IMG/VR virus record: IMGVR_UViG_3300033067_002100
Coordinates: 1 to 50,685 of that record
Source: a virus
Lineage: Duplodnaviria; Caudoviricetes
Length of the DNA stretch: 50,685 nucleotides
Direction: 5' to 3' (one strand)
Within the stretch, counting starts at the first letter, position 1. The number at the start of each line of letters is the position of its first letter. The notes under the pieces are model-generated. The model made no database searches. It saw only the letters and a program-made list of their open reading frames with translations, and was not told where the DNA came from. Positions 37,953-43,442 of this stretch are shown here, piece by piece. The translations under genes and the position numbers were made by a program.

Positions 37953-38541
37953 CGAGCACCGAGTCAGCGAATCCTAAGTCTTCCTCGTGGTTGTGGAGGA
38001 TGTCTTGTACCTCTTCAGCGAAAGCCAAACCCGACTCGTCGACCCACACTGCGTCCTCGTCGCGCTCGACCAAGTAGGCAAAAGCAGTCTTGCCCTGAAA
38101 CTGTAAGCATAAGGTGCGCCGCGCTAGGTCTGCCGGTGCTAACTCAAGTTGCGTGGGAGTTAGTTCCGGAGACCGCTGGTTGACGTAGCTTGCTCGTTTA
38201 GTCGCGGTGAGGCGCAGTGCTTTGGCGCGCAACGCCCGGAGCCTGTCGTAGAGCACGCTTCGCTTTACGTTTAGCACCTTTGCGATTTTGCGCGGCGGCA
38301 TCTGCAAGAACAGCTCTGCTAGTTCCTGTTCACTCGGTAGCAGGTCAGGCATAGCCGTCGTGATTGCGTTCACGATGTATTGACGATCGAAGTTAATGAC
38401 CTTGGTGAACGAGTGGTAAGGCAGACAACCAGAGAGGCCAGCTGCGAGTTCAGGTTCTGTTTTAGCGTGGTTTCGCAGCCATTCAAGCGCCGCTTTGTCT
38501 TTGGAGAGTTTTACGGTTGGGTTGTTACTGTTGTTGGACAT
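37936..38541 (-). CDS. HTH protein (sigma70 region 4 / LuxR-like)
   Basis: LLPSEQELAEL...PRKIAKVLNVKRSVLYDRL. Confidence 0.6.
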   Translation of the reverse strand: MSNNSNNPTVKLSKDKAALEWLRNHAKTEPELAAGLSGCLPYHSFTKVINFDRQYIVNAITTAMPDLLPSEQELAELFLQMPPRKIAKVLNVKRSVLYDRLRALRAKALRLTATKRASYVNQRSPELTPTQLELAPADLARRTLCLQFQGKTAFAYLVERDEDAVWVDESGLAFAEEVQDILHNHEEDLGFADSVLDVESY

Positions 38542-39299
38542 GCATCGGGGGGTTCTCCTTCAGTAAGAATGGCTGGCTGCGCGCCAGGTACGTTGACAGC
38601 CGGGCTGCCCGCAGGAACACGGCTCCGATAAACCGCCTCCCGTTTCAGGATCTTGTGAATTGTACCGACTTCGATGCGCGTGTTGTTACTCGTGCGGAAG
38701 CCGCGGGTGTGGACAACATCCACTATGTTTCTCAGGGAAGCTCCGGAGGACCGTAGTTGATGACAAAGGCGGACCAAATCAGCGCCACGATCGTCAATGG
38801 CCAATGCTCCACCACCCACGGAACGAAACCCAGTAGCAGCTCTACCACCCCGAAAACTCCCTCGGCGTTTGATAGAGGCCGCCTTCGCCTGCTTCATTCT
38901 TCCTAACCATTCTGCACGCTGAAATTCGGCGACACTACCGAGCAACTGGCGAACCAAGTTCCCTGTGGGTGAATCCTCAAGCTTAACGGTAGCGGCCACG
39001 ACTTCCACACCGGCCGCGGTGAATTGGGCATAGAGCTGCTCTGACACGACGAGCTTACGTGCAAAGCGATCAAGACGATCGACCACCAAGCGCGTGAGTG
39101 AACCTTGAGAGGCCTCCGTCAACAGACGCGTGATTTCTTCTCGGTCGGCAGTCGTGCCCGTGACTGTCTCAGAAACCCATTCATCGATCTGAACATTGTT
39201 GTGCAGCGCCCAAGCCAAGATGGAAATGCGTTGCTGTTCGATACCATTGCCAGCTTCCTGGCCCTTATCGGAGATACGCATGTAGGCGACTGTTTTCAT
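38511..39299 (-). CDS. Serine recombinase (resolvase catalytic domain plus short recombinase domain)
   Basis: AYMRIS..Q..G.EQQ, DRLDRFAR, VAEFQR, G.F.GG....GF; start set at ATG39299 from promoter geometry. Confidence 0.9.
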   Translation of the reverse strand: MKTVAYMRISDKGQEAGNGIEQQRISILAWALHNNVQIDEWVSETVTGTTADREEITRLLTEASQGSLTRLVVDRLDRFARKLVVSEQLYAQFTAAGVEVVAATVKLEDSPTGNLVRQLLGSVAEFQRAEWLGRMKQAKAASIKRRGSFRGGRAATGFRSVGGGALAIDDRGADLVRLCHQLRSSGASLRNIVDVVHTRGFRTSNNTRIEVGTIHKILKREAVYRSRVPAGSPAVNVPGAQPAILTEGEPPDACPTTVTTQP

Positions 39300-39333
39300 G
39301 CTTCCATTGTAGCGCAATTGGAAACGTTGTCAA
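39300..39333 (-). promoter_or_regulatory. Near-consensus sigma70 promoter, leaderless geometry
   Basis: TTGACA-16 nt-TACAAT-6 nt-ATG. Confidence 0.75.
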
Positions 39334-39341
39334 ATAGATTA

Positions 39342-40292
39342 TTATCTTACATTGGACATTAGAATTTTATGCTTGATGTTGGTGAGTCCGGCTGCATGAA
39401 CGCCAGAGAATACGTACCAACCCTGCGGCCGCAAACGCACTATCCCCTCTGCTTCCAGTGCGCGCATGTATTGGGGCCTGGACAACTCAAGTGGCGCAAC
39501 TGCCTTGGCAGATAGCAGTCGTGACATCAGTCGCTGCTTCGTGATCTGCAGCTTCGCACCTTGCAGTCGGTACGAGATGTCGTCAGGAACCACCGTTGGC
39601 ATGTGATAACGAAAATGTTGGAGCGTGGGCGACTCTTCCCAAAGCTTAACGCCAGCGGCCGCGATGGCCCGATGCTTAGAGGTTGTCAGCGCCTTTCCAT
39701 CAGCGATGGCTAAAGTCGCGTCCCAGGCCACCTTAGGAAGAAAATGTCCGCGCGCATCGCAAAGCTCACTTGACCAGGTAGGACCCAAAAATCCTGCAAT
39801 GAGCCATTCCGGCGCCCCAACAGCACGCAACATACTTCCGTAGGCATCTTGTGGAAATGCGAACACGCCCACTCGCTCCCGCGGTACCCACATGAATTGA
39901 TTGGAGATGCGATGCCACGTAGCGTTGCGCAGCATTATGATCGGCTTGTAGTTGGGCGTGTGGTACTTCTGCGTGCGTTGATGGCGAAGCATTGCCACCA
40001 TAGTTCTGCACAGCGTTTCGTCTGAGTACTGCCCGTTGTCGTCAAGTACGCCGTAGCACCGAGCTGTAGTTGAGACCGGGGGTAGCGCAGGTTCACCCTC
40101 GATACCGAGCTGCCGCAGGAGTGTAGTCTTCCCTACCCCGGTCGCCGCAACGAAAATCGATTCCTCTCGGACTCGCAAATCAACGCGCTGAGAAATGTCG
40201 ATGATTGGGGCGGCAGAAGGAAAAGAGCGAACGATCTGCGCAATGTCGCTGAACGTCTTGTCAGACGGCAGGAGTGTCAGCTGGTTGGTCAA
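39342..40292 (-). CDS. P-loop NTPase-like hypothetical protein
   Basis: IFVAATGVGKTT Walker A; GVLDD candidate Walker B. Confidence 0.55.
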   Translation of the reverse strand: MTNQLTLLPSDKTFSDIAQIVRSFPSAAPIIDISQRVDLRVREESIFVAATGVGKTTLLRQLGIEGEPALPPVSTTARCYGVLDDNGQYSDETLCRTMVAMLRHQRTQKYHTPNYKPIIMLRNATWHRISNQFMWVPRERVGVFAFPQDAYGSMLRAVGAPEWLIAGFLGPTWSSELCDARGHFLPKVAWDATLAIADGKALTTSKHRAIAAAGVKLWEESPTLQHFRYHMPTVVPDDISYRLQGAKLQITKQRLMSRLLSAKAVAPLELSRPQYMRALEAEGIVRLRPQGWYVFSGVHAAGLTNIKHKILMSNVR

Positions 40293-40638
40293 CTGCTTTT
40301 TGCTCCTGATGTTCGTCGACCACTTTGCTTGCTTCGCGCATTAGGTAGAGCACCTTCTTCTTCCACTGCGAAGGCACTTCCGACGCTACCGCGTTGATGC
40401 AGCGGTTAAGGTTTTTCTCGACAGCCTGTTGTACAGGCGTTGAAAACTGGAGCGTTTCCACAACGTGGAGAAATGCAGCCGCGGCCTCCAGTACAGCCGT
40501 CTGCGCATAGGCGGCATCCGCAATCGCTTCCTCTTCGGTGTTCACGTCATTGAAACGATTCGCGTTTGAAAGAATGGGCGGATCGATCTTTACAGTAGGT
40601 GCAGGACTATTAACTTTCGTATCGTCAGGAGTAACCAT
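40261..40638 (-). CDS. Hypothetical protein
   Basis: Helical 125-aa ORF directly downstream of the RNA block. Confidence 0.6.
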   Translation of the reverse strand: MVTPDDTKVNSPAPTVKIDPPILSNANRFNDVNTEEEAIADAAYAQTAVLEAAAAFLHVVETLQFSTPVQQAVEKNLNRCINAVASEVPSQWKKKVLYLMREASKVVDEHQEQKAVDQPADTPAV

Positions 40639-40694
40639 TTGTGTCTCTCATTGTGTGCAAACAGACAAGTTTGTCTGGAATGGGTTACAAAAGC

Positions 40695-40790
40695 GTTTGC
40701 CGCTTGGATTCGAACCAAGTCCTGCGCGTTATCAGTGCGCTGTGCGACCAGCTGCCTTCTACGGAGGACTTACAACCACACTCCGGCAAA
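40695..40790 (-). ncRNA. tRNA-Ile(GAU)-like RNA with a 24-nt insertion in the D stem
   Basis: Acceptor TTTGCCG/CGGCAAA; T arm CTTGG-TTCGAAT-CCAAG; anticodon loop CT-GAT-AA; D loop AGCTGGTC; 96 nt minus 24 nt gives a 72-nt cloverleaf; no encoded CCA. Confidence 0.7.
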
Positions 40791-40801
40791 CAAACACTTG
40801 T

Positions 40802-40851
40802 CTCTCCAAGGAGTCACACCACTAGGGTCCGTAGAACCCGGCCAGGTGTCG
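40802..40851 (-). repeat. Structured RNA motif, copy B
   Basis: CGACACCTG-[GCCGGGTTCTACGGACCCT]-AGTGGTGTGACT-CCT-TGGAGAG. Confidence 0.65.
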
Positions 40852-40903
40852 GCCATGCTGCATGTACGTCAAAGACGGAACTAACAGCAGAAAACAGGGC
40901 TTA

Positions 40904-40945
40904 CTCTCCAGCCAAAGTCACACCACTCTCGCGAAGCAGGTGTCG
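40904..40945 (-). repeat. Structured RNA motif, copy A
   Basis: CGACACCTG-[CTTCGCGAG]-AGTGGTGTGACT-TTGGC-TGGAGAG. Confidence 0.65.
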
Positions 40946-40951
40946 CTCGGT

Positions 40952-41065
40952 TGGGCTCAGCGGGATTCGAACCCACGAGAGTAGCCAACCTGTGCCCCAC
41001 CAGGGGACAACTCTTGGTAGCGGGAGAAAACCCAGCGACGTCTTCTCGTGCTGGGACATGAACCC
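40952..41065 (-). ncRNA. 114-nt tRNA-like RNA with expanded D and anticodon domains
   Basis: Acceptor GGGTTCA/TGAGCCC plus A73; U8; T arm GTGGG-TTCGAAT-CCCGC; internal hairpins CCCAGC/GCTGGG and CCCC-TGGT-GGGG. Confidence 0.6.
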
Positions 41066-41100
41066 AGTGGCTTGACATCTTCGCCCTTCCCGCGACGTTT

Positions 41101-41382
41101 TTACTTATCAATCCCCAACCCCAGACGCAGTTTGCGTGCATAGTCGCGCATCTGCTCGCGAGTCATATCATCACTGTCGAATCCGATGTCCCACGCGAAT
41201 TGCTCAAGCTTGCGAGACTTCCTCACCAACTCTCTGTTCAGTTGCATTTCGAACTCGCGCACCTGTTGGAGGATTTGGTACTTTCCTGCGTACTGCTTAT
41301 ATGCTGCGTTTTTAGTTCTCAATCCTCGCAACCGTTGCTTGACTACTTCGGGAAGCTCCATCTCGTCGGGCAGCAACTTCAT
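41101..41382 (-). CDS. Basic helical hypothetical protein heading the RNA-block transcript
   Basis: 93-aa ORF preceded by TTGGTT-17 nt (ending TGA)-TAAACT-6 nt-ATG. Confidence 0.65.
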   Translation of the reverse strand: MKLLPDEMELPEVVKQRLRGLRTKNAAYKQYAGKYQILQQVREFEMQLNRELVRKSRKLEQFAWDIGFDSDDMTREQMRDYARKLRLGLGIDK

Positions 41383-41445
41383 GTTATCAGTTTATCATAA
41401 AACATTACAGCAACCAAACGTCGCCGACCAAAATCAGCAAATGGT

Positions 41446-42267
41446 ATGCCCCTAGTAGACATCAACCGACCCGGCATCATTGTCCGCAACGTGATAGACG
41501 AGCTTAAACGTTGGACAAAGCACTCTAGTGAAAACACCGAGCGCATCAACAACAAGTTCTACGAGCTCCCGGCCGCCTACCAGACATTCACGCACGGCAC
41601 GCAGCAGGAAGTCCCCAACCCATTCTATCCATCCGTGCCGACCGGATTTCTCGTTACGAACACGAGCGCCTCAACATCTCCAAGTATCTCGTTCACTCCA
41701 GTCACCCGCTCGGGGTTCTGTGGAATAACGGCAAACTTTGCACGCCCAGCCGGGGTTGTGGACCTGCTACGAGCGGCCACTCAATCAATACCGAGCGCAA
41801 CATCCACACCCATTCAATGGACTTCAGACGAATTGTCGCTCACCTTGGTAGGTACAACAGCCACTAGCGGCGCGTTCTCGTATGACTATACAACGACTAC
41901 GGGCACACCTCCGACGAATAGCAAAATCACCTGCCTATCCTCAGGGTTTGTATTGGTAACTGCCTCTGGTGGTTTCGCTGCGAATGCGACAGGGCTCCGT
42001 GAGTTCTGGTTAGTAAAGAACAACGCAACCACTCCGCGATGGGCGGATACATTGTACCAGTCGCCACCCGTAACTACGGACATTCGATTCAACCTTAGTG
42101 CTGTTATTCAGGTCACCGCTGGTGATTATCTGCAGCTGTATTGTTACCAGGATAGTGGTGGCGCGTTAAACACCCTTGCGGGCACAGTTTCGCGATTCCA
42201 AGCGCGATACGTAGATGTGCCGACAACATACTCAGGCACGGTGCAAGGTTATCTACTCGGCCCTTAG
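41446..42267 (+). CDS. C1q/TNF-like jelly-roll domain protein, probable tail tip/receptor-binding protein
   Basis: QSIPSATSTPIQW, KITC.SSG..LVTA, SAVIQVTAGDYLQLYCYQDSG pattern; Thr/Ser-rich; lone + strand gene. Confidence 0.6.
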   Translation: MPLVDINRPGIIVRNVIDELKRWTKHSSENTERINNKFYELPAAYQTFTHGTQQEVPNPFYPSVPTGFLVTNTSASTSPSISFTPVTRSGFCGITANFARPAGVVDLLRAATQSIPSATSTPIQWTSDELSLTLVGTTATSGAFSYDYTTTTGTPPTNSKITCLSSGFVLVTASGGFAANATGLREFWLVKNNATTPRWADTLYQSPPVTTDIRFNLSAVIQVTAGDYLQLYCYQDSGGALNTLAGTVSRFQARYVDVPTTYSGTVQGYLLGP

Positions 42268-43016: not shown

Positions 43017-43442
43017 TCATTCAAGGCATTTTGTTGCACTCATAACCAAAAGCTGGGTGAGTTCGGTTGTAACTCGTCTCCGCAGACTCACGGTTAGTCG
43101 CCCCCAGCTTCGTGTTTCGGGGTGCGTCGCCATAATGCCGTCTGGGCGATGGTCTAGCCCGAAGTAGTGTCCAAGTTCGTGAATGAAAACTGTGTAGAGT
43201 GTTGAGGGACTGAGACCGGGGCGGAGCGCAATGAGGTTACTGCGGCTGCCTCTTAGGTGGTAACCAACGGAATCGCGATCCGCAGGTCCAAATGCGTCGT
43301 CACTTATTACGATACGACGGCAGCGAGGACCGAATTTGCGCGCGACAACCACCCGGCTACTAACAACTGCGAAGTCGCGTAGAGCTTGTCTAATCACTAA
43401 GCGCTCCGAAGAATTGCCGCCGCAGAGTTGAAAGACCGTCAC
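43017..43442 (-). CDS. Metzincin (matrixin-like) Zn metalloprotease
   Basis: HELGHYFGLDH plus Met-turn GIM. Confidence 0.75.
   Translation of the reverse strand: MTVFQLCGGNSSERLVIRQALRDFAVVSSRVVVARKFGPRCRRIVISDDAFGPADRDSVGYHLRGSRSNLIALRPGLSPSTLYTVFIHELGHYFGLDHRPDGIMATHPETRSWGRLTVSLRRRVTTELTQLLVMSATKCLE

Follow-up and report, generated by a model that had tools for sequence, protein, structure and literature searches.

The window considered here, a complete IMG/VR virus record of 50,685 nt (IMGVR_UViG_3300033067_002100), carries on its minus strand, from position 40951 to 40794, two units composed of CGACACCUG, a variable segment, AGUGGUGUGACU, three or five further nucleotides and UGGAGAG. 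A first-pass annotation had described this motif as two copies of CGACACCTG-tip-AGTGGTGTGACT-N3/5-TGGAGAG sharing 28 identical bases, which was confirmed on the minus strand. Both units lie within a run of small minus-strand open reading frames (ORFs) without a family match and between two sub-threshold transfer RNA (tRNA)-like elements on the same strand. A 12-mer of the motif has two exact sites in the window, at 40812-40823 and 40916-40927. With up to two mismatches, six matches were obtained against 3.8 expected, a number equalled or exceeded in 16 of 100 shuffles; only the exact pair is therefore notable. Folding of the single copies was no better than that of shuffled sequences, with z = -0.86 and -0.54 for the minus strand and z = -0.21 and -0.14 for the plus strand, hence the case depends on relatives. 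Taking these into account, we regard it as highly probable (approximately 0.9) that the two units are tandem copies of a non-coding RNA module that is widespread in phages and has no Rfam family, and that is read from the minus strand, transcribed with its neighbours and folded into a pseudoknot followed by a hairpin, with approximately 55-65 nt per unit.

Two models were used to delimit the units: R1, built from 19 related copies, and R2, which models the pseudoknot helix (P1) and the downstream hairpin (S2). Searching the window with R1 recovered only the two reported sites, the 3' copy (copy B) with 42.8 bits (E = 7.1e-10) and the 5' copy (copy A) with 41.4 bits (E = 1.7e-9); the third-best score was 9.6 bits (E = 0.36). 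R2 scored copy B at 29.7 bits (E = 4.2e-6) and copy A at 21.0 bits (E = 6e-4). Together the matches of the two models place copy A at 40896-40951 and copy B at 40794-40857, separated by a spacer of 38 nt (40858-40895) that matched neither model. The aligned architecture reads, from 5' to 3', the first strand of a stem S1, CG-ACACC-UG, the second strand of S1, a variable segment with 0, 1 or 2 hairpins and often an A at its end, AGU-GGUGU-GAC-N, and the two strands of S2 around a GAGAGN loop. S1 closes the 9-nt loop CGACACCUG, of which the five bases ACACC pair downstream with GGUGU to form an H-type pseudoknot.

In copy A, the 5' strand of S1 is GAG (40946-40948), which pairs with CUU at 40934-40936 as judged from the sequence and from covariation of the closing pair in relatives. 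The loop CGACACCUG (L1) occupies 40937-40945 and contains the 5' strand of P1, ACACC, at 40939-40943; across subfamilies P1 covaries. The S1 3' strand and the linker CGCGAG-AGU (40925-40936) constitute what had been read as the tip of a hairpin capped by a tetraloop. Alignment with two near relatives of copy A (loci L087 and L008), which have GAGG ... CCUC-GCGAA-AGU at S1 and linker, indicates that the proposed GCGA-capped tip overlaps the S1 3' strand and the linker and is better read as these. Tetraloop caps are not conserved features. The 3' strand of P1, GGUGU (40920-40924), is followed by the junction GACU (40916-40919), and within this segment (40916-40924) GUGAC is nearly invariant among 49 copies found without a pattern. 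Hairpin S2 (40898-40913) consists of GGCUG, the loop GAGAGU and AAGCC in the cmsearch alignment, giving four base pairs and a G.A.

Copy B has the same plan. Its S1 (40840-40854) pairs GGC at 40852-40854 with GCC at 40840-40842 and closes the loop CGACACCUG at 40843-40851, with the 5' strand of P1 at 40845-40849; the closing pair is C-G, one of the covarying forms. The pseudoknot loop accommodates a variable peripheral hairpin, GGGUUCUACGGACCC (40825-40839), predicted by RNAfold to form six base pairs, at a place where relatives have none, one or two hairpins. There follow AGU, the 3' strand of P1, GGUGU (40816-40820), and the junction GACU (40812-40815), which together span 40812-40823 and were assigned from sequence and conservation, and an S2 (40797-40810) of CUUG, loop GAGAGA and CAAG taken from the cmsearch alignment. 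With both R1 and R2, each window copy displays the features that define the new family, i.e. an S1-closed loop pairing downstream as AC NNN/NNN GU, GAC-N and a GAGAGN-loop hairpin. The bases A-C-C that the family favours 3' of S2 are absent from both.

The family proved to be large. An exact pattern of 21 bases was found at 72 loci in IMG/VR and 27 in bacterial genomes, far above chance. The downstream hairpin was also present at 22 of the 27 bacterial loci, two with a one-base loop variant, while the other five resemble chance or coding matches. Bacterial records with the motif are labelled Cyanobacteria, Gammaproteobacteria, Verrucomicrobiota, Acidobacteria (Pyrinomonadaceae), Oceanispirochaeta (a spirochaete) and a metagenome-assembled genome (MAG) of Bacilli, among others. 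Two patterns in which the bases of the pseudoknot helix were left free and one restricted to the 3' hairpin each gave at least 120 matches, so that the family comprises at least several hundred copies. R1 identified 125 copies in a first set of 99 loci and 141 in another 100; a covariance-model search of this kind had been proposed in the first-pass annotation, and it returned many additional copies with a fixed core and a variable tip. Forty-nine unique copies that had been selected by no pattern retain GCGACACCU, ARUGGUGUGAC and, in 47 cases, GAGAG. Approximately 25 positions do not vary among phages whose hosts belong to many phyla, and the invariants of the superfamily as a whole are AC...GU, GAC and G-GAGAGA-C. 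After S2 the favoured bases are A, in 62-75% of copies, then C in 54-55% and C in 31-51%. Complete records contain one or two copies each by R2 and arrays reach four, giving 1-4 copies per genome overall; the units of such arrays of 2-4 are separated by short A/U-rich linkers. Conservation this deep in an RNA of 55 nt is usually a sign of catalysis, of ligand binding or of contact with universal machinery.

The segment between the two helix strands had been described as variable, and among relatives it differs in sequence and ranges in length from 4 to approximately 70 nt. A coding function for the motif was rejected, since tip lengths between 4 and 30 nt cover all residues modulo 3; the motif is non-coding.

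The fold is backed by covariation. All five pairs of S2 covary, with 94.2% and 95.3% of cells paired in two alignments and a covariation score that was reached by 0 of 500 shuffles; the TGGAGAG that had been taken for an unpaired flank is the loop of this second hairpin, whose covariation is strong. The closing pair of S1 is G-C in 81 copies, C-G in 4, A-U in 3 and unpaired in 3 in the first alignment, and G-C in 109, C-G in 3, A-U in 1 and unpaired in none in the second. Support for S1 pairs 2 and 3 is moderate (58-76% paired). As the bases 5' of CGACACCUG pair with those 3' of it, changing from G-C to C-G or A-U, the structure is a pseudoknot and not the plain hairpin first drawn.

The third helix, P1, divides the family into classes. 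In class I it is ACACC/GGUGU and nearly invariant. Compensatory changes were nevertheless found, from A-U to C-G (loci L002 and L175), from C-G to U-A (L176) and from C-G to A-U (L196, L204, L217 and L197); in addition, 27 + 5 U-to-C changes produce A.C oppositions. The pattern based on the 3' hairpin alone yielded 98 unique copies among the matches listed, of which six have CGACACC upstream. Most of the S2-pattern copies among the matches listed have class II 5' halves, with GA-ACGCC ... GGCGU-GAC, ACGUC/GACGU, ACGCG/CGCGU, ACCGC/GCGGU or ACGAC/GUCGU in place of the class I helix. A complementary 5-mer was present 4-40 nt upstream of 147 of 232 unique core matches, compared with 40 of 232 when the 3' strand was shuffled, and omission of class I gave 77 of 144 versus 28 of 144. 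When R2 was applied to 100 distinct S2-pattern copies among the matches listed, P1 pairs 1 and 2 were A-U in 94 and C-G in 79 copies, pair 3 was G-C in 49 and A-U in 7, pair 4 was C-G in 34, U-A in 10, U.G in 7 and A-U in 3, and pair 5 was C-G in 50 and G-C in 3. In the same 100 copies 96.6% of P1 cells were paired and approximately 40% of rows were gapped at the inner pairs, in an alignment that is fitted to the model and hence biased toward the structure. Units of both classes share arrays, for example at L007, L014 and L115.

This covariation among subfamilies means that the ACACC/GGTGT helix proposed at the outset is real, relatives having ACGCC/GGCGU, ACGUC/GACGU or ACGCG/CGCGU at the same place. 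The parts of the fold backed by covariation are S2, the closing pair of S1 and, when subfamilies are compared, the ACNNN/NNNGU helix. The view that the minus strand encodes a structured RNA module is likewise supported; the motif had been correctly seen, and its fold had been drawn only in part.

Another explanation is that the RNA is antisense to 16S ribosomal RNA (rRNA): the invariant class I segment UGGUGUGAC would pair with the universally conserved 16S sequence GUCACACCA and the internal ACACC would serve as a lid. The corresponding 9-mer (40916-40924 and 40812-40820 on the minus strand of the window) is a perfect antisense match to the 16S genes of all five motif-bearing genomes compared, which belong to different phyla (L220-L224). 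A 9-nt match common to all five rRNA operons arose in 2 of 2000 shuffles of the 11-mer, and the segment ceases to be invariant where it ceases to be complementary. However, the test was post hoc and covered three blocks in two orientations, class II copies, even those in the same arrays, carry GGCGUGAC, GACGUGAC and similar sequences in which the match is lost, and the rare compensatory variants of class I preserve P1 while breaking the match to 16S. Antisense action on 16S rRNA is accordingly considered very unlikely.

The genomic setting was assessed by comparing 268 matches in 194 loci with tRNAs called by ARAGORN, which were present in 47 of the 194 loci. Forty-four of the 268 matches lie within 300 nt of a tRNA on the same strand and none near a tRNA on the opposite strand. 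Seventeen copies end 0-11 nt before the 5' end of a tRNA and nine start 1-29 nt after the 3' end of one; at L087 the motif is flanked by tRNA-Arg, 1 nt upstream, and tRNA-Val, 2 nt downstream. A second setting is provided by one podovirus-like lineage (49 of 194 loci), where the array starts a median of 7 nt after the gene for the major head protein (phrog_1328, E = 1.1e-36), which is itself preceded by scaffold and portal-sized genes; tRNA-Met often follows the array. Elsewhere the motif is often found 10-30 nt upstream of the start codons of unrelated genes preceded by Shine-Dalgarno (SD)-like sequences. Among the S2-pattern copies of the matches listed, an ORF of at least 60 aa starts within 120 nt downstream in 79 of 101 cases and within 30 nt in 57 of 101.

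Phage or prophage tRNA arrays with the motif were seen to encode other RNAs as well, namely an RNase P RNA (L009, 3348-3679, 139 bits, on a contig of 181 kb), a transfer-messenger RNA (tmRNA) and a permuted tmRNA (L162, 190-611; L028, 6676-7044). At L077 (3184-3336), in a gammaproteobacterial MAG, a class I copy begins 5 nt downstream of the CCA of a tRNA-Leu-like gene, which was called by neither ARAGORN nor Rfam. That copy is situated between genes for an acyl-CoA thioesterase and an FGE-sulfatase, the only two scanned there, and no phage-related family was found in them.

Copies also occur in cultured phages: a 54-nt copy used as query matched nine phage records, at sites that are unannotated in every case. 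The 80-nt gap between two annotated tRNA-Leu genes of Phaeobacter phage MD18 is filled by a full class I copy, which R1 scores at 43.8 bits (E = 9.3e-11). Matches of R1 to Cronobacter phage CS01, Planktothrix phage Pag-Yong1 and Microcystis phage Mwe-JY26 were weak or partial (20.1-22.0 bits); the copies of CS01 and Pag-Yong1 were matched in full by R2, and that of Mwe-JY26 lies between tRNA-Gly and tRNA-Trp. Pag-Yong1 was observed to have two tandem class II copies (L232, 1501-1522 and 1642-1667) in an unannotated gap of 750 nt, the second ending 25 nt before a 201-aa gene annotated as a Cas9/Csn1-family (HNH-like) endonuclease. A class II query against 5,426 complete genomes of E. coli found no copy, the sole match being a 20-nt chance match inside pepA.

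These placements bear on whether the motif acts as DNA, for instance as an origin, packaging site, recombination site or promoter element. The low number of copies per genome (1-4), the position of some copies near contig ends, the serine integrase gene 1.5 kb away in the window and the L077 copy 5 nt after a tRNA-Leu-like 3' end would all suit such a site. Against it stand the strict co-orientation with tRNAs (44 matches in the same orientation, none in the opposite one) and the covarying stems with G.U pairs on one strand only, and a pseudoknot is meaningless in duplex DNA; of the explanations considered, a DNA-level site appears the most improbable.

As regards function, the motif would best be explained as an autonomous transcript-processing module, either self-cleaving or cut by a universal RNase, a reading to which we assign a probability of roughly one in three (0.35). 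The module would be placed at the borders of RNA units, between tRNA and tRNA, capsid mRNA and tRNA or cistron and cistron. Its invariant junction and loop bases would form a compact core, either self-cleaving or the target of a universally conserved host RNase, and the RNAs on either side would be parted by the cut, with a structured end remaining. Within the window, the cut would fall between two degenerate tRNA-like elements within an operon of small genes. A narrower form of this reading, which is doubtful, envisages a new class of small self-cleaving ribozyme composed of an H-type pseudoknot and a GAGAGN-loop hairpin, whose catalytic core would be supplied by the invariant AC...GU-GAC junction and the loop and which would cut polycistronic tRNA and late transcripts in phages of many bacterial phyla. 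A scattered, partner-free and phage-rich distribution is typical of small self-cleaving ribozymes. The motif has no conserved partner gene, and the genes upstream and downstream of it are diverse: 54 upstream proteins include up to eight that match major-head families, the others being diverse or without known family, and the proteins downstream of S2-pattern copies among the matches listed fall into 56 singletons and clusters of at most six, two of which are head-tail adaptors.

Several observations weigh against processing. The distance to tRNAs varies (1-29 nt when the tRNA is upstream, 0-19 nt when it is downstream), so that the motif cannot set tRNA ends precisely in the manner proposed for theta ribozymes. 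Tandem copies can abut with linkers of 7-8 nt; they would be redundant for a cutter and fit a dosage or roadblock role better. No known self-cleaving ribozyme was found by Rfam near the motif in any of 42 related loci. Class I P1 is near-invariant where pairing alone would be needed, which hints at sequence-specific recognition by a partner, and the U-rich tails of 42 of 224 copies suggest that some copies may act as terminators.

The motif could alternatively be a small stable RNA acting in trans or as a decoy, which tRNA-processing enzymes would excise from tRNA arrays or late transcripts. Its invariant bases would serve to bind some conserved component of host or phage, and tandem copies would raise the dose. 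Tight packing among tRNAs would free a unit of approximately 55-100 nt after RNase P cleavage and 3'-end trimming, and the arrays of 2-4 units with short A/U-rich linkers, as well as the highly expressed settings (tRNA arrays with RNase P RNA or tmRNA, or positions directly after the major head gene), are in keeping with this, as is a class I P1 that is nearly invariant while S2 covaries freely. On the other hand, an ORF start within 30 nt of 57 of the 101 S2-pattern copies among the matches listed leaves no space for a separate 3' terminus and looks like action in cis, the motif is not accompanied by a conserved protein gene, and no Sm-like or other RNA-binding domain was detected with PHROGs and Pfam in ten neighbouring ORFs of the window. 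This explanation is thought rather unlikely.

Rather unlikely to a similar degree is a structured cis-acting element of 5' or 3' untranslated regions, which would shield the adjacent mRNA or tRNA precursor against exonucleases, terminate or attenuate transcription after the capsid gene, or load ribosomes on the next gene. The frequent position 10-30 nt before start codons with SD-like sequences would be explained in this way, as would that directly after major head or other head-module genes and before head-tail adaptor genes. The S2 loop presents a GGAG-like sequence, and a U-rich tail 3' of S2 in 42 of 224 copies compares with 5.4% of random positions. A roadblock or terminator needs no invariant bases, yet approximately 25 positions are fixed across many host phyla; moreover, 81% of copies have no U-tract and those between tRNAs have no cistron to regulate.

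The motif is real, widespread and strongly conserved, and is absent from Rfam and from the literature searched. None of the 4227 models of Rfam 15 matched anywhere in the window at the gathering score; at E values up to 10, the interval 40400-41400 gave sub-threshold tRNA matches and noise only, and in 42 related loci (15 + 16 + 11) no Rfam family covered the motif. The failure of the first-pass annotation to match the motif by eye to a known ribozyme or riboswitch is thereby borne out by the Rfam models, for the window and the 42 loci alike. Literature queries, including the core strings, did not return a description of the motif, and by title and abstract the string matches were unrelated papers. 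A catalogue of structured RNAs from IMG/VR lists 8,495 unnamed candidates, including tRNA-like and gene-upstream ones (PMC10690425); the motif could be among them, and the text consulted names no such motif.

The closest topology known to us is that of the pistol ribozyme, a class that is abundant in phages and metagenomes and is not known to have a fixed gene partner. As in pistol (RF02679; PMC4604425), a 5' hairpin loop is pseudoknotted to a downstream strand and followed by a second hairpin, within approximately 50-60 nt. The motif differs in the invariant GAGAGN loop of its second hairpin; neither a closing P2 helix nor a G-U cleavage dinucleotide is evident, S2 being followed by A-C-(C), and the pistol model had no match around the window site at E values up to 10 or in the 42 loci.

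The closest context is that of theta and other ribozymes resembling that of hepatitis delta virus (HDV), which the theta-ribozyme paper places beside phage tRNAs (PMC10879173); these too are small pseudoknotted RNAs adjacent to phage tRNA genes on the same strand. The distance of the motif from the tRNA 3' end, in contrast, varies from 1 to 29 nt. Only UG stands at the place of P3, no Rfam model of the HDV family matched in the window or the 42 loci, and without P3/L3 between its two 5' strands the motif cannot form the nested double pseudoknot of HDV, whose elements are ordered P1-P2-P3-P1'-P4-P2'.

In size and topology the motif also resembles preQ1-I, SAM-II and fluoride riboswitches, whose aptamers are small H-type pseudoknots, and shares with them short L1 and L2 and an L3 that is often A-rich at its end. 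A ligand-binding aptamer, be it a riboswitch or an RNA sponge, in which the pseudoknot and the invariant junction bind a small molecule or ion, would be compatible with this resemblance and with the occurrence of tandem copies. The motif nonetheless lacks a consistent gene association, as illustrated by the predominance of singletons (56, largest clusters of six) among downstream genes of the matches listed, and many copies lie between tRNAs inside tRNA arrays. It further differs in its extra invariant hairpin, has no clearly visible expression platform and matched no Rfam riboswitch even at E values up to 10, and we consider an aptamer quite improbable.

Two array-forming systems were also compared. 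ToxI antitoxins of type III systems and phage pseudo-ToxI consist of tandem short pseudoknot-forming units, and the motif resembles them as a phage-encoded array of such units. Its units, however, vary in stem and tip within one array, and the core is common to many host phyla. A type III toxin-antitoxin system was rejected: of ten flanking ORFs scanned in bacterial loci, four matched unrelated Pfam families and six nothing, with no ToxN-like or other toxin family. Arrays of structured, pseudoknotted, phage-encoded units are likewise described for the non-coding RNA of UG27 reverse transcriptases, where the units measure approximately 135-167 nt, have little sequence conservation and lie beside the reverse transcriptase and two accessory genes (bioRxiv 10.64898/2026.09.22.753630). 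Those of the motif, by contrast, measure approximately 50-100 nt and have an invariant core, and the PHROG families reported for the sampled neighbouring genes did not include a reverse transcriptase.

Should the motif be a ribozyme or a binder of conserved machinery, it would add a new RNA class, account for the gaps left unannotated within phage tRNA arrays and downstream of capsid genes, and offer a compact, portable RNA part. Even as a mere processing or stability signal it would be a useful annotation feature, since hundreds of phage genomes are blank at these sites. A cultured system is at hand in Phaeobacter phage MD18 on P. inhibens DSM 17395.

Directly 5' of copy A, the first tRNA-like element (40952-41065, minus strand) has an acceptor pairing GGGUUCA/UGAGCCC, a T-arm and a long insert, and matches the Rfam tRNA model with 21.0 bits (E = 0.15). 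The second (40695-40791, minus strand), 3' of copy B, has a T-arm, a GAU anticodon-like loop, and an acceptor pairing of 8 bp read from the sequence, which is interrupted by a 20-nt hairpin insert following the 5' acceptor strand; it scores 23.2 bits (E = 0.036) over 40700-40764. Neither reaches the thresholds for a tRNA: ARAGORN at default settings called none and both Rfam scores are below the gathering score of 29. At relaxed thresholds ARAGORN models the flanks as intron-containing tRNAs with implausible introns of 26-395 nt. A tmRNA or permuted tmRNA spanning the 370-nt region was rejected, as neither ARAGORN -m nor the Rfam tmRNA models gave a match.

No DNA similarity to 40600-41450 was found among cultured phages, no relatives of the 93-aa neighbour protein were detected in viral contigs, and promoter and terminator counts in 39800-41800 were not above those of shuffled sequence. 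In the scan of ten neighbouring ORFs the matches were a serine integrase, a structural protein and, weakly, a metallopeptidase-like motif. The serine recombinase/integrase gene (38511-39317, minus strand; phrog_95, E = 1.8e-40) has the same orientation as the motif and is located 1.5 kb downstream of it. The metallopeptidase-like match belongs to a 141-aa ORF (43017-43442, minus strand) and is weak, a zinc-metallopeptidase-like similarity at 22.2 bits to Pfam Metallopep against a cut-off of 27.

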